Below are positions 6,984 to 54,538 of a stretch of DNA of 64,000 nucleotides, piece by piece. The position numbers and the translations under genes are program-made. The number at the start of each line of letters is the position of its first letter. Position 1 is the first letter of the stretch. The notes beneath the pieces are model-generated. The model was not told the DNA's origin and did no database searches. It saw nothing but the letters and a program-made list of their open reading frames with translations. The DNA is from Candidatus Nealsonbacteria bacterium (GTDB taxonomy: Bacteria; Patescibacteriota; Minisyncoccia; Minisyncoccales; GWA2-38-27), in the NCBI GenBank assembly GCA_030616085.1, contig JAUWYA010000001.1, positions 8,692 through 72,691 of the forward strand, given 5' to 3'.

Positions 6984-6990
6984 TATAAAC

Positions 6991-7065
6991 CCTGTAGAAG
7001 AAATTTGACTGCCTTTGAGATTTAGGTTTTCTTTCAGAAAATCTTGTCAAATTTTCTCTACGGGG
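6991..7065. repeat. Long inverted-repeat element, paralog of 1311-1385
   Basis: CCCTGTAGAAGAAATTTGAC...GTCAAATTTTCTCTACGGGG. Confidence 0.8.
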
Positions 7066-7100: not shown

Positions 7101-7174
7101 ATGAGCCCCGTTAGAAATCTTTGTTAATTAGAATTTCTATCGGGGTAAAAATCTATGGAAATTTCTAACGGGGT
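7101..7174. repeat. CCCCGTTAGAAAT inverted-repeat element (A / A'-degenerate / A'), paralog of 1417-1490
   Basis: ATGAGCCCCGTTAGAAATC...AGAATTTCTATCGGGG...ATGGAAATTTCTAACGGGGTG. uORF MSPVRNLC*. The right arm overlaps the ATG of the 7155 gene. Confidence 0.8.
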
Positions 7175-9604: not shown

Positions 9605-10684
9605 ATGAAACAAAAAGGGTTTACCCCGTTAGAGATCAACGAGGCAAAAAATAAATATAAGGCAAGACAATCTCTAACGGGGTTTATTTCCATAAAGCTT
9701 CAGTTAATAATATTGGCTGTGATTTTACTTATAATGTCATTAGAAATAACCGGGCTTGTTTTAGACAGCAAAGGAAAATTATTTCCTTTATTTCGTAAAA
9801 TTTCTTTAGTATTCGCAGGATATAAAGATGCGGGAGGAATTTCAGATGAAGAAGGAAACGGCTTAACTTTCAAACAGGGGCCTGAATACTCAGATGAAGA
9901 AATGGAGAAGAGAATTAAAGAATTAGAGAAAAAAATCAAGGATCTTGAAGAAAATCAGCAGGTTCCCTTTCCTCCTGAAGAATATTTTCTTCCCCCTTTA
10001 ACTCAAGAGCAGATTAGCGCTGTAGTTGAACTTTGGTGTCCTGATGACGATTATAATTACACAGGATATATTAGCATTGGGTCAGGCAGCATTGTCAGTC
10101 CAGAAGGAATTATCATTACTAATAGGCACGTTATTTCAAATGAAGACTGGAGCGTTATTAAATCTACGCCAACTTGTTATGTTGCTGTTACAGATGATAT
10201 CGCCTGGCCGCCCACAGTGAAATATGCGGCTAATTTAATTGCTTACGCGCCTGTAACAGATGATTATTTTGATTTTGATATCGCTATTTTATATATCAAT
10301 GACGTTTGCCGCGAATGTGAGGATGCGCCAAGTTCTCTTCCTTCAAGTTTTTCTTATTTAGATCTTGGTTATTCTGATATTCTTGCGCCTGGAGATTATG
10401 TGGCAATTGCTGGTTATCCTGAAATAGGGGCAGGGACTTTTAATTTTACTGATGGAATAATAAGCGGAAGAGTAGGAGAGTTTGTTTTGAAAACAGATGC
10501 TAAGATTGATTCTGGGAATTCTGGAGGTTCTGCTTTGAATAGCAAGAATCAACTTATCGGAGCTCCTACCTGGACAATTTCAGGCCGGGCAGAAAGCATG
10601 GGCTATGTTATTGGTATTGACCAGGTTGTAGAATGGTATGAAACAAAAGTAGTGCCTTCTGATTCAGTAATAGTGCCTTACTAA
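9605..10684 (+). CDS. Membrane-anchored trypsin-like (S1/S1C-type) serine protease; the 5' end contains an in-frame IR element
   Basis: 'ITNRHVI' (His), 'DIAILYI' (Asp) and 'GNSGGSALN' (Ser) in the correct order. The N-terminal 'TPLEINEAKNKYKARQSLTGF' is encoded by IR element 9624-9684. Confidence 0.6.
   Translation: MKQKGFTPLEINEAKNKYKARQSLTGFISIKLQLIILAVILLIMSLEITGLVLDSKGKLFPLFRKISLVFAGYKDAGGISDEEGNGLTFKQGPEYSDEEMEKRIKELEKKIKDLEENQQVPFPPEEYFLPPLTQEQISAVVELWCPDDDYNYTGYISIGSGSIVSPEGIIITNRHVISNEDWSVIKSTPTCYVAVTDDIAWPPTVKYAANLIAYAPVTDDYFDFDIAILYINDVCRECEDAPSSLPSSFSYLDLGYSDILAPGDYVAIAGYPEIGAGTFNFTDGIISGRVGEFVLKTDAKIDSGNSGGSALNSKNQLIGAPTWTISGRAESMGYVIGIDQVVEWYETKVVPSDSVIVPY
9624..9684. repeat. 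CCCCGTTAGAGAT...ATCTCTAACGGGG inverted-repeat element inside a CDS
   Basis: TTACCCCGTTAGAGATC (spacer) AATCTCTAACGGGGTT. Confidence 0.8.
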
Positions 10685-28194: not shown

Positions 28195-28290
28195 ACCCCG
28201 TTAGAGATTATGGGGCAAGATAAGAAAATAATATTTATTATTAATTATGGTTCAAATAAAAAAACAAAGAGAAAGAATCTCTAACGGGGT
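28191..28290. repeat. CCCCGTTAGAGAT...ATCTCTAACGGGG inverted-repeat element spanning the start of the 28247 gene
   Basis: ATGAACCCCGTTAGAGATTATGGGG...GAAAGAATCTCTAACGGGGTG. uORF MNPVRDYGAR*. The right arm encodes 'RISNGVK'. Confidence 0.8.
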
Positions 28291-37221: not shown

Positions 37222-37290
37222 CCCCGTTAGAAGCCGCCCTGCCGAAGGCACGGCTACGGCCGCCTCGGGGCGATCTGCTTCTAACGGGGT
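37222..37290. repeat. CCCCGTTAGAAG...CTTCTAACGGGG inverted-repeat element with a GC-rich internal hairpin; the 3' arm supplies TTGACA
   Basis: ACCCCGTTAGAAGCCGCCCTGCCGAAGGCACGGCTACGGCCGCCTCGGGGCGATCTGCTTCTAACGGGGTTGACAAGGG. Confidence 0.75.
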
Positions 37291-37432: not shown

Positions 37433-37436
37433 TGAC

Positions 37437-37495
37437 CCCGTAGAGAAAATTTGACTTGCTTCGCAAATGAATATTTGTCAAATTTCTTCTACGGG
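37437..37495. repeat. Long-variant inverted-repeat element (CCCCGTAGAGAAAATTTGAC...GTCAAATTTCTTCTACGGGG)
   Basis: Same arms as 1311 and 6991. Confidence 0.8.
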
Positions 37496-37497
37496 GT

Positions 37498-38067: not shown

Positions 38068-38151
38068 GCCCCGTAGAGAAATTTCGAAAAACCCCTACAG
38101 GGTAATAATAAGAATTTCGGAGAAATTCTTAATTCGAAATTCTTCTACGGG
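38068..38151. repeat. Long-variant inverted-repeat element (CCCCGTAGAGAAATTTCG...CGAAATTCTTCTACGGGG)
   Basis: Lies directly upstream of the ATG at 38153. Confidence 0.75.
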
Positions 38152-38152
38152 G

Positions 38153-46294: not shown

Positions 46295-49036
46295 CTAAGG
46301 AAGAGATTCTAAGAATTCATCTATTTTTTCTCGCCCATGTGTTTTTGGTATTGAATATTGCCAAGCAATGAGGGCTTTTTGTTTTGCTTGGTCATATTCT
46401 TTTATTTCGTAATGAAGATGCGCTAAATTAAAATATAAAGTTCTTAAAAAATTATTTGCTTTTTCTCGAGATTTGGTGTCCGGTGTTGAATATTGCCAAG
46501 CAATTAGACCTTGTTGTTCTGCTTGTTTGAAGTTTTGTGTTATATTATAAGCTTGAGCCAAATAAAAATGATATTGGAAATGGTCATTGTCTAAATCTAA
46601 TATTGATTTAAAGAACTCTTCCGCATCTCCTAATAAGTCCGGAAACAATCTTACTATGTTTAAGGCTCGGTCTCTAGCTTTATCATATTCTCCTATTTCT
46701 TTATAAATGTATGATAAAGAAGCATGATATTGGAAACTTTCTGGGTCTGCCCACGCTATTAATCTGTCATAAACATCAGCTAATCTTTTGTAGATTTCTA
46801 TAAAAAGTTCTTCGTTTTTATCTTCATTTTCAATTGATTCAAATAATTTCATATAAGCTCTTTGTAATTTAAAAAGATTTTTGTCTGAGTTAATATTGTG
46901 CCCCATTTTAATTGATATAGCCATATTTTCATCAGCTTGTTCAAGTTCATTCAAATAAATATGAGCCAGAGCTTTTTTCCACCAGCAGTGTGCTAATTTC
47001 GGATTTAAATTAATGCATTGTTCTGCTTTTTCTTTTGCTGTTTGGTATTTTCCAGAAATAAAGTCACTTTCTATCCAACCAAGAAAGACTTCTTCACGTT
47101 TAGGGCTTAATTCGTGAGCTCTTTGATAGCAAGCATCAGCTTCTTTTTCTAATTCTTCAACACTCTCTATTTTAAGGATGTCTTTGTTTCCAATCAAAAT
47201 ATTTAAATAGCTTCCAAGAGAAATCCATGTTCTGGTATAATTAGGCCTTAGGTCTTTTAATTCTCTTAAGATTTCAACTGCTTTTGGGGCTAAGACGTAT
47301 TTTCTTTCCATATTTTGTTCTAGGCAATCTTTAATAATATCAAGATATTGAAGCCGGACATAAGTGTCTACAATGCTATGCGAAGAAAGAATACTGTCTA
47401 TTTTTTCTACTGCTTTTTCACACTGTTTTCTTTCTGAATAATAAATAGCCCAATTTAATTCTTTATTAATCTCCAAGGGTTTTAAAGCTCCAAGCCAAAT
47501 AAACAAAACTAATACACAAAATAGTCCAAATATTAATCCAGATTTCCACAGAGGACTATCAGAGACTGGGTCTCTGTTGATTAACAGAGACCGGGTCTCT
47601 GTAAGCTCATTATTTTTTTGAATAAGAAATAAAGAATAGCCAACTAAAAGAAAGAAAATTAGATAAGTAGAAAAACTATCAAAACTGAAAAAATTAGCTG
47701 TTAAATAACCAATAAAAACAGCTTGAATTCCATGGCAGATTAAAGCATCATTAGGATTTTTTGTTTTTAGTTTTTGTAATTGCCAGAATAATGCGGCAAA
47801 AAGAGAAAGATAGATTATTAAAGCGGGAATGCCTGCTTCAATTGCAATATCAAGTATAAAATTATGGGCTCTATCCCACCAAATGCGGGATAATCCTGGA
47901 AGACGAGGGTCATAATGTTTATCAAAAGCTACTGAAAAATTTTCTGGACCCCAACCAAGAATAGGTCTTTCTTTTATTGCCTCAATACTAACTTTCCAGG
48001 CAGAGAAACGCGCTTCTTCAAAGATTAATTCAAACGAAAGCCGAGGGGCAATTGTTTTTAATGTTCTGTTATTTTCAACAAATTCAGGAAGCTGGTCTTG
48101 TGTATTCACAAAGTAAATACTGCCAACAATTAAAAATAAGGCAATGACAGTTATAATTTTTAGTAAAAGTATTTTTTTTGAGCGGTTTTTTACCCCGTTA
48201 GAGATTTGTTTATTTTGTGGTTCTTCTTTTTTTTGGTAACCTCTAACGGGGTACAAGAGAAAGAAATAAAGAAAACCAATTATTAAGCCGAGATAAACAG
48301 CTCTGGCTTTTATGATTAGAATAACAAAAATAAACAATGCGATTACTGAAAAATAAAAGAATTTTTTTAGATATTTTTTTTCTTTTACCCCGTTAGAGAT
48401 TTGTTTATCTTGTGCTTTCTCTTTATTCTCAGAATCTCTAACGGGGTTTAAACCAAAAGATAAAGCTAAAAATACTAAGAACAAAAGATACATAGCTAAG
48501 AATATTGAATTTCCAAAACTTGCTGCAGGTCTTCCTGTAGAGGAGATAAGATATTCTTTGAAAACCTCAAAATATTGAAAGATGGCCATAATTGAGGCTA
48601 AAGCACCGATAACTAAAGTAAAGCCCCAGATTTTTTGCCAATCTTTTTTTCTGATAATCAAAAAAGCCAAAATAGCAAAAATTATATAAAGAGAAAAGTT
48701 TAAAAACCCGCCTGCTCTATATGGAGATTCCCAAAAACTGTAATAAGGGTCTTTAGAAAAAATAGTTGCTAAGAGGAAAATTCCCCAGAGGGTTATCAAT
48801 AACCAGAAAGGCCAGAAAACCTTATTTTTTCTATCTAATAAATCCTTAAAATTTATCTTGATTTTTTTAGAAATAATCTTCCAAATAAGAAAGAAAAGCA
48901 AACTAGAAACTATAATTCTAAAAACAAGAGCTTTTCCCCAGGCAGCTGGATGAAACATAGGAGGAACAGCAAGCAAGGGCAAAGCTAAAATCACAAAAAA
49001 AGCAATTAGATAGATTTTATAGGACTTGTTATCCAT
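46295..49036 (-). CDS. Paralogous O-antigen ligase (Wzy_C)-TPR protein, with two in-frame IR-element insertions
   Basis: ~70% identity to 43923 in the membrane core. IR elements at 48192-48252 and 48388-48446 encode 'KQISNGVK...'. Longer TPR tail. Confidence 0.6.
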   Translation of the reverse strand: MDNKSYKIYLIAFFVILALPLLAVPPMFHPAAWGKALVFRIIVSSLLFFLIWKIISKKIKINFKDLLDRKNKVFWPFWLLITLWGIFLLATIFSKDPYYSFWESPYRAGGFLNFSLYIIFAILAFLIIRKKDWQKIWGFTLVIGALASIMAIFQYFEVFKEYLISSTGRPAASFGNSIFLAMYLLFLVFLALSFGLNPVRDSENKEKAQDKQISNGVKEKKYLKKFFYFSVIALFIFVILIIKARAVYLGLIIGFLYFFLLYPVRGYQKKEEPQNKQISNGVKNRSKKILLLKIITVIALFLIVGSIYFVNTQDQLPEFVENNRTLKTIAPRLSFELIFEEARFSAWKVSIEAIKERPILGWGPENFSVAFDKHYDPRLPGLSRIWWDRAHNFILDIAIEAGIPALIIYLSLFAALFWQLQKLKTKNPNDALICHGIQAVFIGYLTANFFSFDSFSTYLIFFLLVGYSLFLIQKNNELTETRSLLINRDPVSDSPLWKSGLIFGLFCVLVLFIWLGALKPLEINKELNWAIYYSERKQCEKAVEKIDSILSSHSIVDTYVRLQYLDIIKDCLEQNMERKYVLAPKAVEILRELKDLRPNYTRTWISLGSYLNILIGNKDILKIESVEELEKEADACYQRAHELSPKREEVFLGWIESDFISGKYQTAKEKAEQCINLNPKLAHCWWKKALAHIYLNELEQADENMAISIKMGHNINSDKNLFKLQRAYMKLFESIENEDKNEELFIEIYKRLADVYDRLIAWADPESFQYHASLSYIYKEIGEYDKARDRALNIVRLFPDLLGDAEEFFKSILDLDNDHFQYHFYLAQAYNITQNFKQAEQQGLIAWQYSTPDTKSREKANNFLRTLYFNLAHLHYEIKEYDQAKQKALIAWQYSIPKTHGREKIDEFLESLP
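48192..48252. repeat. CCCCGTTAGAGAT...CTCTAACGGGG inverted-repeat element inside the Wzy-TPR CDS
   Basis: TACCCCGTTAGAGATTTGTTTATTTTGTGG...GGTAACCTCTAACGGGGTAC. Confidence 0.8.
48388..48446. repeat. CCCCGTTAGAGAT...ATCTCTAACGGGG inverted-repeat element inside the Wzy-TPR CDS
   Basis: TACCCCGTTAGAGATTTGTTTATCTTG...AGAATCTCTAACGGGGTT. Confidence 0.8.
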
Positions 49037-49856: not shown

Positions 49857-50030
49857 AAGCATTTTAAAAATGGATGGGAAAGTTCGGTGAAAATCCGAGA
49901 CTGTGCCGCAACTGTTAAAGTCAGAATACCATCCGCACAATATTAACTTCTTTTCTTCGAGCTAAAGAGAAAGATTAACCCGCCAAAATTTAGGCGGGAT
50001 AATCTCTTTCACTCGAAAAGAGATTTTTTA
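49857..50030 (+). ncRNA. Cobalamin (B12) riboswitch with a terminator-type expression platform
   Basis: GGATGGGAAAGTTCGGTGAAAATCCGAGACTGTGCCGCAACTGTTAAAGTCAGAATACCATCC matches the cobalamin aptamer core (GGGAA, GGTGAAAATCC, CCGCAACTGT, B12-box-like AGTCAGAATACCATCC). Downstream hairpin AATCTCTTTCACTCGAAAAGAGATTTTTT ends 5 nt before the ATG. Confidence 0.7.
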
Positions 50031-50034
50031 ATTC

Positions 50035-51858
50035 ATGAAAATAAAAAAGAAAATTTTAATTGTTTATTTAGCCATACTTTTAGCTGTCTTAATTGGATTG
50101 GGTAATTTTTTTGAAGTTTGGTCAGAAAGCCAATCAGAAATTGATAAAGCTATAAACTATCTTAAAGCTCAGCCTCAAACCGCCTGGGCCACTATGGCTT
50201 TGGCCGGAGCTGGAGAAACCGAGATTGATTTAAATCATCTAAAATCTGTTCCTTCTGGCCAAGAGTCAGCTACTACCTATGCAAAGTATATTTTAGCTTT
50301 AGTAGCAGTTGGCAAGAATCCCTCTAATTTTGGAGATGAAAATTATGTAGAGAAACTAAAAAGTTTTTATCAAGATGGGCAATTCGGTGAGAAAAATTTT
50401 ATTAATGATGATATTTGGGCAATTTTAGCCTTGGCTTCAATTGGTCAGAAAAATTTAGCAATAGTTCAGGATGCCAAAGATTATATTTTGAGCTATCAAA
50501 ATTCAGACGGAGGATGGAGTTATGATATTTCTTTTTCCTCTTCTGATACCAATGATACTGCTGCTGCCATTATGGCCCTGCTTGAAGCAGGAGTTTCTTC
50601 TTCTTCATCAGCTATCCAGAATTCTATTAGTTTTTTGAAATCTCAACAAAATGATGATGGTGGATTTTCTTATCTTGCAGATTCGCTTTCCGATTCTTGC
50701 TCTGATGCCTGGGTAATTTCAGCTATTTATAAATTGGGACAGGATCCTTTCAGCTCAAATTGGACAAAAAATGGGAAAAACGCTTTAGACCATCTCAAAT
50801 CTTTACAAGATGAAGATGGCGGTTTCTGGTGGCAATCTGAAGGGGATAACAAATTTTGCAGTTCTTATGCTTTGGTTTCCTTATTAATGAAGTATTATCC
50901 GATTGAAACAATTTATAATAAGCATCACTTAAGAATTGAAGATCAGGATAGCACTATTTGTGATACTGAGATTAATGGCGGCACTGCTATGGATTTGATA
51001 ATTAGAGGTTCGGAGATATGTAATTACGATTACTTAATTAGTGAGTATCCTGGAATAGGTCTTTATTTGGCAGAAATAAATGGTCAGGCCAACTGGATGT
51101 ATATGGTAAACAATATTTCTCCTATGATAGGAGCAGATAGCTATTACTTAGAAACTGGAGATGAGGTTTTATGGTTTTCTGGAGCATGGTTAGAGAAAGG
51201 TTGGTTTCCAACTAAGCTTGAATTATTTAAAACCGAAAATTTAGCCACTTTTCAAGTAAAATATTACGATTCCGCAGCTAATAATTGGCAAAATTTAGAA
51301 ATACAAGGAATAAAAGTAAAGATTGGCGAGTCAGAATTTATTACTAATGATACAGGACAAATTGAAGTTTCTTTAACAGGTTTAGAAGCTGGTTTTTATC
51401 AGGTATTTGTTGAAACCCAGATTATTGATGAAAAAGGTTATATTAGAAGTGAAAAAGTAAATTTAACAACTGGAGAAGTTCCTAAAGAACATGGAGTGGG
51501 ATTAAAAGTAGAGATTGAAAAAATAGAAGTTCCTCCTGGAGGAGAACAAGAAGCAATTAGTTTTTCAGTAAGTTCAGATAGTTTGGATTTCGGAAAATTA
51601 AAACCAGGAGAAAGCTCTACTCAAAATTTGACCATTGACAATGGAGAGAGTAGAATTTATTTAGAAGCGGAAGTAAATGGAGCTAGTGTTTTTCAAGACA
51701 ATTTAGAAATAGATGAAAAATTTTGGCAATTTTTCTCAACTGAAATTGAGAAAAACCAAGAGAAGTCTTTCCCAGTCAAATTAACTATCCCATTTAATTA
51801 TGATGGAGATTTTGGCCAACAAGAGGGGGAATTAACTTTTTGGGCAATTAAAAAATGA
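50035..51858 (+). CDS. Secreted alpha/alpha-toroid (prenyltransferase/terpene-cyclase-like repeats) + DUF4430 protein; transcobalamin-like architecture, candidate extracellular B12-binding protein
   Basis: N-terminal TM. Repeats 'SDGGWSYD', 'NDDGGFSYL', 'DEDGGFWWQ'. DUF4430-like 'INGQANWMYMVNNISPMIGADSYYLETGDEVLWFSGAW'. C-terminal beta-rich region. Confidence 0.55.
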   Translation: MKIKKKILIVYLAILLAVLIGLGNFFEVWSESQSEIDKAINYLKAQPQTAWATMALAGAGETEIDLNHLKSVPSGQESATTYAKYILALVAVGKNPSNFGDENYVEKLKSFYQDGQFGEKNFINDDIWAILALASIGQKNLAIVQDAKDYILSYQNSDGGWSYDISFSSSDTNDTAAAIMALLEAGVSSSSSAIQNSISFLKSQQNDDGGFSYLADSLSDSCSDAWVISAIYKLGQDPFSSNWTKNGKNALDHLKSLQDEDGGFWWQSEGDNKFCSSYALVSLLMKYYPIETIYNKHHLRIEDQDSTICDTEINGGTAMDLIIRGSEICNYDYLISEYPGIGLYLAEINGQANWMYMVNNISPMIGADSYYLETGDEVLWFSGAWLEKGWFPTKLELFKTENLATFQVKYYDSAANNWQNLEIQGIKVKIGESEFITNDTGQIEVSLTGLEAGFYQVFVETQIIDEKGYIRSEKVNLTTGEVPKEHGVGLKVEIEKIEVPPGGEQEAISFSVSSDSLDFGKLKPGESSTQNLTIDNGESRIYLEAEVNGASVFQDNLEIDEKFWQFFSTEIEKNQEKSFPVKLTIPFNYDGDFGQQEGELTFWAIKK

Positions 51859-51940
51859 GCCCCGTTAGAAATCCAAAAAAGATTCTAAAGGGGAAATATT
51901 ATGCTTCAAAAACTCAGAAATTCTAAAATTTCTAACGGGG
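51855..51940. repeat. CCCCGTTAGAAAT...ATTTCTAACGGGG inverted-repeat element overlapping the stop of 50035 and the start of 51901
   Basis: ATGAGCCCCGTTAGAAATCC...AATTCTAAAATTTCTAACGGGGTG. The right arm encodes 'KISNGVRK'. Confidence 0.8.
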
Positions 51941-52485
51941 TGAGAAAAATTCTATTAATCTTAATAATAATTTCTTTTTTAGCTGCTAATTCTGTTCAAG
52001 CGGTGGCAGTTAAAGTTAAGCCATCTGAAATAAAAATTGAAGCCAATGCAGGAGTTTTGATTGAACATGAAATAATAATAGAAAATCCGGGTGAAAACGT
52101 AGCTTTGTTTGAAGTTTATTTAGACAATTTTTCTGATTGGATCAAAGCAAAACCAGAAAGTTTTGTTTTAGAAAGTGGAGAAATGCAAAAAGTAATTTTA
52201 GAAATTAAAAATGAAGAGATAGGGGTCTTTTCTACTATGATTTCAGTAGTAGCTAAATCTTTATCTGAAAGGAAGTTTAAAGCCAATTCCGGAGTGAAAA
52301 TCCCCTTGGAAATTAGAGTTATTCAAAGAGAGGAATCAAATTTTTTAGCTGCTGTTTCCCAAAACATTAAAAGATTTTTGGATTCAAGGAGCTTAATTTT
52401 TGTTTTTAGCATAATTTTAGTTTTGGTTTTAGCCATAATTTGCATAAAGAGGCGTAAGAGCATATTAAAAGATGAACCCCGTTAG
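51901..52485 (+). CDS. Bitopic membrane protein (N-terminal and C-terminal TM), unknown
   Basis: 'ILLILIIISFLAANSVQA' and a C-terminal 'LIFVFSIILVLVLAIICIKRRKS'. Confidence 0.35.
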   Translation: MLQKLRNSKISNGVRKILLILIIISFLAANSVQAVAVKVKPSEIKIEANAGVLIEHEIIIENPGENVALFEVYLDNFSDWIKAKPESFVLESGEMQKVILEIKNEEIGVFSTMISVVAKSLSERKFKANSGVKIPLEIRVIQREESNFLAAVSQNIKRFLDSRSLIFVFSIILVLVLAIICIKRRKSILKDEPR

Positions 52486-52755
52486 AGATTAGCGATATGT
52501 TTTATACTTACGTAATACAAAGCAAAAAAGACAGAAAATGGTACACTGGCTATACTGAAGATTTACGGAAACGCTTTAATCAACATAACTCTAATGAGGT
52601 TTATTCAACAAAAAATAGAGGACCGTTTGAGCTAATTTATTATGAAGTATGTTTAAATTCACAAGATGCAAGGTCAAGAGAAAAATATTTAAAAACTGGG
52701 ATGGGAAAGCGCTATCTTAAAAATAGATTAAAGCGTTTCCTATCTCTAACGGGGT
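52472..52755 (+). mobile_element. Candidate full-length member of the CCCCGTTAGAGAT IR family: the IR arms bracket a GIY-YIG nuclease gene exactly
   Basis: Left arm ATGAACCCCGTTAGAGATTAG (52472-52492). Right arm CCTATCTCTAACGGGGTG (52738-52755), which encodes the protein C-terminus 'FLSLTG*'. Confidence 0.4.
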
Positions 52756-52757
52756 GA
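52497..52757 (+). CDS. GIY-YIG nuclease-family small protein (YhbQ/UPF0213-like)
   Basis: 'FYTYVIQSKKDRKWYTGYTEDLRKRFNQHN' is the GIY-(x10)-YIG + R...E/N arrangement. 86 aa. Confidence 0.7.
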   Translation: MFYTYVIQSKKDRKWYTGYTEDLRKRFNQHNSNEVYSTKNRGPFELIYYEVCLNSQDARSREKYLKTGMGKRYLKNRLKRFLSLTG

Positions 52758-53248
52758 AAAAAAATATTAAAATAATTATATGGATTGGAATATTTCTAAT
52801 TTTAGTTGCTGGAATAATTTTTACCCCGTTTAGAGATTATATGACAGGGCTAAAAAACAGAGCAGACAAATCTCTAACGGGGTTTATCTTTCAAGACAAA
52901 GTTGATCTTGAAGAGGAATCTAATAATCAAGTATTAGAAGAAAGCACAATAAGCGTAATTTTAATTATTGATTATGGCGATGGAATCTCTCAAGACTTTG
53001 ATATTGAGTTTGTTGAAGGAATGACCGCCTTTGATTTGTTAAATGATAGGGCAGAGGAATTAAGCTTGGAAACAAAAGCATATGACATTGGAATTCTTAT
53101 AGAGGCAGTTGGGGATAAAAAGAATGGACAAGATGGAAAATATTGGCTATATTATATAAATGGAGAGATGCCTATGGTTTCAGTTGATAATCTGAAAATT
53201 AACCCTGACGATAAAGTAGAATTTAAATTTGAGAAATCACCATTTTAA
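52754..53248 (+). CDS. Signal-anchored DUF4430-domain protein, with an in-frame IR-element insertion
   Basis: 'GKYWLYYINGEMPMVSVDNLKINPDDKVEFKFE' is DUF4430-like. IR element 52823-52883 encodes 'TPFRDYMTGLKNRADKSLTGF'. Confidence 0.5.
   Translation: MKKNIKIIIWIGIFLILVAGIIFTPFRDYMTGLKNRADKSLTGFIFQDKVDLEEESNNQVLEESTISVILIIDYGDGISQDFDIEFVEGMTAFDLLNDRAEELSLETKAYDIGILIEAVGDKKNGQDGKYWLYYINGEMPMVSVDNLKINPDDKVEFKFEKSPF
52823..52883. repeat. CCCCGTTTAGAGAT...ATCTCTAACGGGG inverted-repeat element inside a CDS
   Basis: TTACCCCGTTTAGAGATTATATGACAGGG...CAAATCTCTAACGGGGTT. Confidence 0.8.
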
Positions 53249-53280: not shown

Positions 53281-53826
53281 ATGTCTAAAAAATTAGAATT
53301 TGCTATTGCTATAATTTTTATTTTGGTAGGAGTTAGTTTGCGGCTTCTTCCTCATGCTCCTAATTTTGCGCCAATTGCTGCAATAGCTCTATTCGGAGGA
53401 GTTTATCTTTCAAGAAAAACAGCTCTTATTCTGCCAATAGCAGTAATGATGATTTCAGATATTTTTATTGGCAGTTATGGAATTAAATTAATGGTTTTTG
53501 TTTATGCCAGTTTTTTAATTTGCGTGCTTTTGGGTTTTTGGTTGAAAAAACATAAGAAGTGGCAAATAATCTTAGGAAGTTCTATTTTATCTGGTATTAT
53601 CTTTTTCATTTTGACTAATTTTGCTGTTTGGATTTTTACTCCCTGGTATGCTAAAACTCTTTCCGGCATAGTCCAATGTTATGCAATGGCTCTACCATTT
53701 TTCAGAAACACTTTATTGGGAAATATATTTTATGTAGGCGCGTTTTTTGGAAGTTACGAGATAATAAGAGTTTGGATTAAAAAGAAGTTTGAAAACGAAG
53801 AAAAAGCCCTTGTTCACCCCGTTTAG
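53281..53826 (+). CDS. Small polytopic membrane protein (5-6 TM), possibly an ECF-type S-component-like substrate-capture protein
   Basis: 181 aa, all hydrophobic helices. 'LRLLPHAPNFAPIAAIALFGGVYL'. Last gene of the riboswitch-led cluster. Confidence 0.35.
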   Translation: MSKKLEFAIAIIFILVGVSLRLLPHAPNFAPIAAIALFGGVYLSRKTALILPIAVMMISDIFIGSYGIKLMVFVYASFLICVLLGFWLKKHKKWQIILGSSILSGIIFFILTNFAVWIFTPWYAKTLSGIVQCYAMALPFFRNTLLGNIFYVGAFFGSYEIIRVWIKKKFENEEKALVHPV

Positions 53827-53905
53827 AGAGTGTTCGACACCGAGTGTCGAACATTTCTAATGTCTAACGAAATATGAAGGTTCGACCTTCATATTTTTTT
53901 CAATC
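53816..53905 (+). other. Degenerate IR element with a perfect internal palindrome (GTGTTCGACACCGAGTGTCGAACAT), followed by terminator ATGAAGGTTCGACCTTCAT + T7
   Basis: ACCCCGTTTAGAGAG...TTTCTAATGTCTAACG, then hairpin + TTTTTTT. Confidence 0.5.
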
Positions 53906-54479: not shown

Positions 54480-54538
54480 GACCCCGTTTAGAGATAAATC
54501 TCTAACGGGGTTGACACCCTCTCTTGGGTGTTTTAATA
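54480..54538 (+). promoter_or_regulatory. Minimal IR element (two 15-bp arms, 2-nt spacer) whose 3' arm supplies the -35 of promoter TTGACA-17-TAATAT
   Basis: GACCCCGTTTAGAGATAAATCTCTAACGGGGTTGACACCCTCTCTTGGGTGTTTTAATAT. -35 at 54510-54515, -10 at 54533-54538. Confidence 0.55.

Follow-up and report, generated by a model that had tools for sequence, protein, structure and literature searches.

A GIY-YIG nuclease gene between the arms of a 13-bp terminal inverted repeat as a candidate mobile unit in Candidatus Nealsonbacteria

The stretch of DNA analyzed here (the window, 64,000 nucleotides of a Candidatus Nealsonbacteria contig, JAUWYA010000001.1) contains one copy of a small gene encoding a GIY-YIG nuclease of 86 amino acids (aa), whose open reading frame (ORF) runs on the plus strand from the ATG at 52497 to 52757. 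We confirmed that this ORF is bracketed by CCCCGTTAGAGAT at 52477-52489 (plus strand) and by its complement at 52742-52754 (minus strand; ATCTCTAACGGGG when read on the plus strand), as an earlier note made from the sequence of this region had described. That note had placed the left arm at 52472-52492; an arm is present there, but this range also takes in the target-site duplication (TSD) and a few unpaired bases, and the paired arm is 13 nt long. The whole gene-bearing element (52477-52754, plus strand) thus comprises 278 bp, namely the left arm, a 7-nt spacer, the ORF and the right arm; its termini read CCCC…GGGG, and it lies between two copies of TGAA (52473-52476 and 52755-52758). The right arm supplies the last codons of the gene (...F L S L T G), of which S-L-T-G are encoded by the 13-nt repeat. 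The stop codon TGA (52755-52757) falls within the right TSD, outside the element, and the same duplication forms, with the last G of the arm, the GTG start codon (52754) of the downstream DUF4430 gene.

The operon that holds the element encodes a prenyltransferase-like/DUF4430 protein, a 181-aa protein without known function, a DUF4430 protein and a DUF6580 protein. Homologues of the downstream DUF4430 protein have 143-147 aa versus 164 aa here, and the alignment shows a 21-column gap exactly at the position of a short element (52824-52882). The contig that carries the closest of these homologues (L081) has the same gene order, flanks that are 91% identical and no arm anywhere, and three sites that are filled in the window are empty in it. 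The empty site of the GIY-YIG element, from which the whole block is missing, reads …TTAAAAGA-TGAG-AAAAAATATT…; the filled site carries TGAA on both sides of the 278-bp element, so that both TSD copies share an A where L081 has a G. At a short hairpin element located between the prenyltransferase-like gene and the next gene (51860-51940; arms CCCCGTTAGAAAT, in a three-arm form, L-R'-R), L081 shows …AAAAGA-TGAG-AAAAATTC… and the window has TGAG at both ends. The third site, inside the DUF4430 ORF, reads …GTAATT-TTTA-TCTTTC… in L081 and is occupied in the window by the 52824-52882 element between two copies of TTTA; this hairpin adds 21 residues in frame, and its fold as single-stranded DNA (ssDNA) has a z-score of -5.1. 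From these three clean empty sites with exact 4-bp duplications, it follows that both the gene-bearing element and the short ones are true insertions, and that their ends are shared. The fact that three insertions occurred within 1.2 kb since the split from L081 shows that the family has been recently active. Instead of being a single-copy gene kept in synteny by relatives that lack the arms, the GIY-YIG gene is missing from this site in L081, and in other genomes it occurs with its arms in unrelated contexts.

The duplication was also observed beyond the window, and the excess of exact matches, evaluated on 124 elements, was significant. Both flanks showed an exact 4-mer match in 20 of 59 gene units, compared with a mean of 6.5 and a maximum of 15 in 2000 permutations; for the short elements, the match was found in 20 of 65, against a permutation mean of 3.7 and a maximum of 11. 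Among arm pairs taken from metagenome loci, 80 of 103 had a 4-bp duplication. The reconstructed targets follow the pattern (A)-T-[G/T]-[A/T/G]-[A/G].

We then considered the arrangement of the gene and its arms in 81 homologous genes, scoring the arms with strict anchors and evaluating covariation on 71 unique units. Both arms were present around 72 of the 81 genes, at similar distances and in unrelated genomes, and in most of the other nine the arms were degenerate or had small insertions or deletions. The left arm, xCCCGTTAGAGAx, is almost always located 1-14 nt before the ATG, and the complementary arm ends the gene. The right arm is invariably joined to the final codons, and no stop codon exists within the element; for 57 of 84 units, it is the flanking tetranucleotide that directly gives the stop. 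At 48 loci, both neighboring genes have the same orientation as the GIY-YIG gene, and at only one are both opposed to it. The gene and the arms are therefore one conserved unit. The earlier note had raised chance flanking as the alternative, in view of the element density. In this reading, a housekeeping GIY-YIG gene present in one copy would be placed by coincidence between two copies of an abundant repeat, and the density of arms is indeed high, approximately one per 2 kb of the window (20 occurrences of the motif ACCCCGTTAGAGAT with up to 2 mismatches, versus 0.16 expected from shuffles). Nevertheless, the presence of both arms at the same distances around 72 of 81 homologues from unrelated genomes, the absence of the whole block from the orthologous L081 site and the covariation of the arms exclude a chance flanking for practical purposes, and we rejected it as having almost no probability left.

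The covariation concerns the two variable ends of the arm. Positions 2-9 (CCCGTTAG) are invariant in the 71 unique units, whereas position 1 (C/T/G/A) is complementary between both arms in 66 of them (permutation mean, 33) and position 13 (T/C/A) in 68 (permutation mean, 29); from position 14 onward, pairing is at chance level. Positions 1-13 of the inverted repeat are paired in at least 93% of the units. In the right arm, position 13 coincides with the third position of a Leu codon; it can therefore drift freely, and the left arm follows. In one unit (L073), both arms are altered together, to GCCCGTAAGTAG and CTACTTACGGGC. Since covariation cannot distinguish DNA pairing from RNA pairing, and the left arm occupies the position of a ribosome-binding site, 1-14 nt upstream of the ATG, the arms might instead pair in the mRNA and control the translation or stability of the nuclease message. 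We regard this as very improbable, because it leaves without explanation the TSDs, the empty sites and the identical arms of gene-free insertions in intergenic and coding regions; moreover, no Rfam family matches the elements.

The protein encoded by the window ORF matched Pfam PF01541 along residues 1-68 (60.1 bits, gathering threshold 22.6; E = 2.7e-16). This is the only domain of the 86-aa protein, and the AlphaFold2 model, with a predicted local distance difference test score of 92.9, likewise shows a single domain with the GIY-YIG alpha/beta fold, in the order strand-strand-helix-strand-helix-helix. Across 41 sequences with identities of 69-100%, residues Y5, Y16, G18, R26, H30 and E50 do not vary; from a mapping onto I-TevI and UvrC, we take them to be the catalytic Tyr of the GIY motif, the Tyr-x-Gly of the YIG motif, the Arg, the His/Asn and the metal-binding Glu. 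The nearest solved relative is the UPF0213 protein BH0048 (E = 7.6e-8). Foldseek matched the model to BH0048 (E = 4e-4) and to the structure-specific nucleases HIGLE/SLX1 (TMq 0.6-0.67), with a weaker match to the catalytic domain of I-TevI. The match to TIGR01453 was far under its cut-off (22.5 versus 56 bits), and Rfam revealed no intron family. Codons that differ among relatives comprise 298 synonymous and 226 nonsynonymous cases; from these comparisons, the nuclease is under purifying selection, with its active site intact.

Relatives of this protein are abundant. More than 6,400 homologues were found in a 90%-clustered collection, the best 120 of which are all 76-100% identical, many of them on very short contigs; 1,081 clusters of a 50%-clustered library matched at E<=1e-10, and at least 429 relatives were confirmed in a scan of one genome per GTDB species. 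Among the best 80 of these loci (69-90% identity), many classes of Patescibacteria are represented, together with Omnitrophota, Planctomycetota, Nitrospirota, Thermodesulfobacteriota, Clostridia, Bdellovibrionales and Elusimicrobiota. A search of plasmids gave only B. subtilis yazA, and a close-pattern scan of the phage collection IMG/VR revealed no relatives. The genes that flank the unit vary between genomes, and the insertion sites are many and unrelated. Such protein identity across phyla, together with a different context in each genome, points to the horizontal spread of a selfish unit. A GIY-YIG protein has been listed among the genes transferred from Patescibacteria to other bacteria (PMC12455944). 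Multiple copies of the gene also occur near one another: three in L076, two in L025 and a nest in L027. The latter (L027:145-908) is a composite in which a T-variant element with matching arms, TCCCGTTAGACCT, and the TSD TGAA surrounds both a fragment of degenerate GIY-YIG sequence and a second unit, which is complete.

In a more distant clade, 45% identical to the window protein, another repeat, CCGCGTAAAAGGCTTCGCCTCACGCGG, surrounds the genes. This repeat forms a hairpin by itself; its copies precede the gene, overlap the 3′ end of the coding sequence and, in inverted orientation, follow the gene. That this clade has its own flanking hairpin indicates that gene and repeat co-evolve. In four contigs (L088:2115-3345, L092:3001-4825, L093 and L094:2062-3369), the gene of this clade adjoins a 5'-3' exonuclease gene (PF02739/PF01367), an adjacency that could reflect either a functional link or an insertion hotspot; in L092, the distant-clade gene is duplicated.

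Approximately 17 paired elements can be delimited in the window, the short ones having 29-94 nt. What the short elements have in common is limited to the outer 10-13 bp of the stem (YCCCGTTAGA…TCTAACGGGR). Their interiors have an own, covarying, complementary inner stem, and their loops are unrelated to the gene and to each other, except for a few subfamilies. When folded as ssDNA, the arms paired in seven of eight elements (z from -5 to -9.8), while in the three-arm element (51855-51945) they paired only in the centroid structure (z = -2.7). The earlier note had proposed the GIY-YIG unit as a candidate autonomous parent of these elements, and the short ones as its possible internally deleted derivatives. 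The first part finds support in the conservation of the gene-arm unit, in its being a true insertion with the same ends and the same duplication length, and in the gene being, in the 1.46 Mb covered, the only recurrent coding cargo; the second does not hold in that form, since the interiors share nothing with the gene-bearing unit beyond the arms, which leaves an origin by internal deletion unsupported rather than disproved. A common recognition of the stem base would explain the family better. The gene-bearing unit is real and mobile, and it is the obvious candidate for the autonomous partner.

Considered together, the only conserved DNA feature of the family is a 13-bp terminal inverted repeat, N-CCCGTTAG-AGA-N, and its only protein is the single-domain GIY-YIG nuclease of 86 aa. 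With modest confidence, we consider it probable that these are small transposable elements, that 52477-52754 is the family member coding for the protein, and that this nuclease acts as the mobilizing enzyme. According to this proposal, both ends would pair into a stem, in ssDNA or in an extruded cruciform, and the boundary of the element would coincide with the base of this stem. The nuclease would recognize the conserved outer ~10 bp of this stem irrespective of the loop (from 2 to ~250 nt) and cut at its base; integration would occur at T-K-D-R tetranucleotides through a 4-nt staggered break and host repair, generating the 4-bp duplication, and short hairpins with the same stem base would be mobilized in trans. 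That this particular nuclease cuts the stem is suggested by analogy, as is the hairpin or ssDNA nature of its substrate, for which we rely on the Ssn nucleases discussed below, the SLX1-like fold and the strand bias. The dependence of the short elements on the nuclease is a further step that we infer. Given the 48:1 co-orientation, a strand-biased mechanism that probably depends on single strands is plausible.

Several observations weigh against this proposal. To our knowledge, hydrolytic GIY-YIG nucleases have no strand-transfer chemistry; consequently, integration must rely on host functions. The GIY-YIG enzymes I-TevI, Eco29kI and Hpy188I leave overhangs of 1-2 nt, and we know of no precedent for a 4-nt stagger among enzymes of this type. 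Approximately half of the units do not have a clean duplication; the commonest mismatched flank pairs combine the commonest duplications (TTTA with TGAA, and TTCA with TAAA), and we attribute the missing ones, tentatively, to recombination between copies or to decay. The short elements far outnumber the genes (one gene and ~17 elements in 64 kb), and only one gene was found in 681 kb of pilin-associated metagenome loci. At the variable arm positions, the short elements do not resemble the resident gene unit in excess of random expectation (a mean of 10.3 versus 10.05 of 13). Finally, the identical protein P0064 was found in many samples at one conserved site with the same context; its copies gave no evidence of recent transposition to multiple sites, all places sharing that context, and thus some copies are stable rather than active.

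Some of these points would also be accommodated if the GIY-YIG gene were a passenger, or a selfish homing-type gene residing in the loop of a hairpin, and the elements were moved by another enzyme encoded elsewhere or by the action of host replication and repair on hairpins. The loops of the elements can have any sequence, with lengths from 2 to more than 100 nt, the genes are rare relative to the hairpins, and integration is not explained by GIY-YIG chemistry alone; in addition, a 4-bp TSD is typical of DDE transposition, as in the IS5 and IS701 types. The element, however, encodes no transposase of a recognized class (DDE, HUH, serine, tyrosine or Cas1), GIY-YIG being its only ORF, and no other coding cargo or transposase was found between matched arms in 1.46 Mb, where GIY-YIG is the sole recurrent cargo. 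Larger elements, with arms 400-4000 bp apart, were represented only by coincidental pairings of separate elements and by the nested GIY-YIG composite of L027. It is also difficult to reconcile a passenger with a gene-arm unit that is kept across phyla with its right arm fused to the last codons and its stop left to the target, an arrangement that fits an autonomous unit working in unrelated hosts, or with the purifying selection, the intact active site and the distant clade with its co-evolved different repeats. For these reasons, we consider it rather unlikely that the gene is a passenger.

The earlier note had taken GIY-YIG proteins to be known only as homing endonucleases, a notion made outdated in 2025 by the description of the Ssn nucleases and their 'SRM' repeats, so that the concept of a GIY-YIG nuclease with a cognate hairpin repeat has a precedent (Chenal et al. 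2025, PMC11893778). The Ssn proteins are single-domain GIY-YIG nucleases of ~94 aa (CDD cd10448). Their substrate is the ssDNA form of a hairpin repeat, generally termed 'SRM' and represented in Neisseria by NTS/dRS3; they bind this repeat and cleave next to it, also if two oligonucleotides make up the stem. The ssn genes are flanked on both sides by the cognate repeat (NTS-ssnA-NTS), and the authors noted that this architecture is similar to that of an insertion sequence (IS) and compared it with RAYT/REP (PMC11893778). In the text of that paper, Patescibacteria are absent and 'target site' appears 0 times (PMC11893778). The window family shares with Ssn a single-domain GIY-YIG protein of ~90 aa, a cognate hairpin repeat on both flanks that is present in many genomic copies, and the co-evolution of gene and repeat between clades. 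In Ssn, each flank is a self-contained hairpin of ~28 nt with a CGTC tag, whereas in the window unit each flank is one half of a single stem and the gene lies in the loop. TSDs and empty sites are documented here for the window family, and neither is reported in the Ssn paper (PMC11893778). The window arms have no CGTC or GTC tag, and the repeat is unrelated in sequence to SRM. The published SRM consensus, HGTCWYN(0-2)YYVSBRHN(0-5)WNVSBRGN(0-2)RNCYNB, gave 0 matches on either strand of the window, but shuffles also gave 0, which makes this search a weak one in AT-rich DNA. Judged from these repeats, the broader family follows the Ssn pattern of clade-specific cognate repeats, with the window clade as the case in which the gene is inside a single split hairpin.

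The Ssn precedent (PMC11893778) also raises the possibility that the system serves the host, the nuclease cutting hairpin-bearing ssDNA such as incoming transforming DNA, as in Neisseria, and the repeats being kept for that purpose or as terminators or mRNA stabilizers, with mobility as an ancestral or incidental trait. The hairpins are frequent in pilin genes, and certain copies of the nuclease gene persist at one locus in many samples. Patescibacteria are believed to rely on importing DNA by means of a type IV pilus-like machinery, which would fit such a role. In contrast, the three insertions within 1.2 kb since the divergence from L081, the landing of elements within coding sequences, and the high identity across phyla in unrelated contexts, indicative of selfish horizontal spread, are not what would be expected of a host function. 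Although host service and mobility are not mutually exclusive, we consider it unlikely that the former is the main explanation.

The elements were also compared with other known systems, and our literature searches found no paper describing an element of this type. As in the systems formed by repetitive extragenic palindromic (REP) sequences, their REPIN doublets and RAYT, a small enzyme gene of low copy number lies between inverted short palindromic repeats, and hairpin doublets without the gene are present in the genome (PMC2817692, PMC3116915). However, RAYT is an HUH/Y1 enzyme of the IS200/IS605 type and not a GIY-YIG protein; REPs carry a GTAG tag and are extragenic, while the window arms have no unpaired GTAG tag; REPIN insertion is not characterized by 4-bp duplications; and RAYT systems are mostly inherited vertically, whereas the window protein family is 70-90% identical across phyla. 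The IS200/IS605 elements themselves are similar in having hairpin DNA at their ends and a tetranucleotide target. Unlike the window elements, they are not known to produce a target duplication, have subterminal imperfect hairpins rather than terminal inverted repeats, and use a Y1 transposase with a covalent intermediate. Short palindromic repeats that lie in frame in coding genes and add a peptide segment are also known among CGTC-tagged REPs and the Rickettsia palindromic elements (RPEs), the latter reportedly described by Ogata et al. in 2000. The CGTC-tagged REPs, including dRS3 and RPE-4/6, were noted to be without a dedicated transposase (PMC3733652); RPE-4 and RPE-6 belong to the CGTC class, later linked to Ssn. 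The RPEs are another sequence family, with no enzyme assigned in the 2013 study (PMC3733652), while for the window family the termini, the duplication and an enzyme-bearing copy are defined.

Homing endonuclease genes of the GIY-YIG class (I-TevI and the free-standing Seg genes of T4) are likewise mobile genes that encode a GIY-YIG nuclease. In homing enzymes, DNA binding is the task of a separate domain, and their genes reach a single cognate site through the repair of a double-strand break; terminal inverted repeats and target duplications are not known from them. The window unit differs from them in encoding a single-domain protein, in having no detected intron, in occupying many unrelated sites and in its weak structural match to I-TevI. 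Lastly, the DDE-derived miniature inverted-repeat transposable elements (e.g., Correia elements) also have terminal inverted repeats, a short duplication of fixed length, a small size and many copies. In the window family, by contrast, a search of 1.46 Mb revealed no parent IS with a DDE transposase between matched arms, conservation between copies does not extend to the interiors, and only the 10-13 bp of the termini, which must pair, are shared.

The surviving copies are located at stop/start overlaps, where both codons are regenerated, or in frame inside genes, and they do the host little damage. A particular case is that of type IV pilin-like genes, in which the elements insert precisely at the prepilin-peptidase site and recreate it (L076:2294-5702, L011, L013 and the metagenome loci L095-L214). 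The peptide encoded by the left arm, FTPLE, resembles the pilin motif FTLIE. In L076, three consecutive pilin genes each contain a GIY-YIG unit that is in frame on both sides (leader-G/FTPLETT-GIY-YIG-SLPLTG/FTLIE...); the gene upstream of them encodes a 356-aa product that we take to be PilC/GspF-like. When metagenomes were scanned for the end of an arm with TTTAC and L[IV]E after it, at least 120 matches were obtained, and in the 82 resolvable cases among the matches listed, a short hairpin yields leader-G/FTPLE...xLTG/FTLIELLVV.

A bolder extension of our proposal is that the unit is an autonomous prokaryotic transposon of an unclassified kind, whose machinery consists of the 86-aa GIY-YIG protein and the 13-bp stem, which has spread across phyla, has evolved translational transparency and has inserted repeatedly at the G/FT site of pilins. 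The transparency would lie in the lack of an own stop codon, in ATGA junctions that regenerate the upstream stop together with a GTG or ATG start, and in arms that are open in two frames. At the pilin site, the host peptidase could release both the pilin and, in the gene-bearing copies, the nuclease. We advance this extension tentatively, and as somewhat doubtful in its entirety.

The remaining short elements of the window illustrate the variety of sites and forms. The element at 9624-9682 (TSD, TTTA) follows a short leader in frame (MKQKG/FTPLE...SLTG/FISIK), and that at 28196-28289 (TSD, TGAA) lies at an ATGA stop/start overlap. Two elements, 48193-48251 and 48388-48446 (TSD of the second, TTTA), are in frame inside the same membrane-protein ORF, which is on the minus strand. 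The smallest, at 54482-54510 (TSD, TTGA), has 29 nt and consists of two arms with almost no loop. At 24141-24197, the left flank is TTGA and the right one is GTTG, so that a TTGA duplication is obtained only if the right arm gains one G.

Three elements form a subfamily with GAAAT arms in the L-R'-R arrangement: 1422-1489 (TSD, TGAA), 7106-7173 (TSD, TGAG) and the already mentioned 51860-51940. They carry a Shine-Dalgarno-like GGGG and, after it, an ATG in the reading frame of the downstream gene, as at 1422-1489, and therefore provide a new translation start and a short N-terminal extension. A second, GC-rich subfamily has arms CCCCGTTAGAAGC and the interior GCCGC...GGCACGGCTACG...GGGCGATCTGC. 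Its member in the window, 37222-37289 (TSD, TTGA), has an interior conserved in other genomes: it is nearly identical to L022:6340-6407, from an unrelated metagenome-assembled genome, and related forms occur in three further genomes (L060:4283, L072:1600 and L024:2436). This element is conspicuous in DNA of 33% GC, and its ssDNA fold has -28 kcal/mol.

A family of long-stem relatives, with arms CCCCGTAGAGAAAATTTGAC and a core that is one T shorter, has its own 4-bp duplications; it includes the copies at 1311-1386 (TSD, AAAG) and 6990-7065 (TSD, TAAA), and long-stem relatives are also located at 37436-37496 and 38069-38152. The copies at 1311 and 6990 have a common interior, and each is ~35 nt upstream of a GAAAT three-arm element; from this arrangement, the pair appears to be a duplicated composite module. 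The arms at 52824-52836, 54482-54494, 53817-53829 and 24185-24197 show the same single-base bulge, either as an extra T (CCCCGTTTAGAGA) or as an extra A in the opposite arm (TCTCTAAACGGGG), and the corresponding stems fold with one bulged base. One of these arms belongs to a decayed element (53817-53870) that overlaps the stop codon of the DUF6580 gene (product ...HPV*); its left arm, CCCCGTTTAGAGA, is intact, it contains an internal hairpin, and the arm on the right is degenerate (TCTAACGAAA). Beyond this element, at ~53873-53900, there is a terminator-like hairpin with a T-run. Upstream of the operon that holds the three insertions, we detected an AdoCbl-II (cobalamin) riboswitch at 49861-49941 (54.1 bits, E = 2e-10), which suggests that this may be a B12-uptake operon.

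If the GIY-YIG protein mobilizes these elements, one more nuclease fold would be added to the few transposase chemistries, and, with 278 bp, the unit would be one of the smallest autonomous mobile elements known. A nuclease that recognizes a 10-bp stem base whatever the loop could, furthermore, be a useful reagent specific for ssDNA or DNA structure. The empty sites and TSDs supply the link that was missing from the work on Ssn, namely that a single-domain GIY-YIG unit with hairpin flanks behaves as a true transposon, and they bear on the old question of what spreads palindromic repeats that have no enzyme of their own, such as the CGTC-tagged REPs, dRS3 and the RPEs. For the tiny genomes of Patescibacteria, elements located in operons and coding sequences alter start codons, C-termini and leader peptides, and hence affect gene calling and protein annotation.

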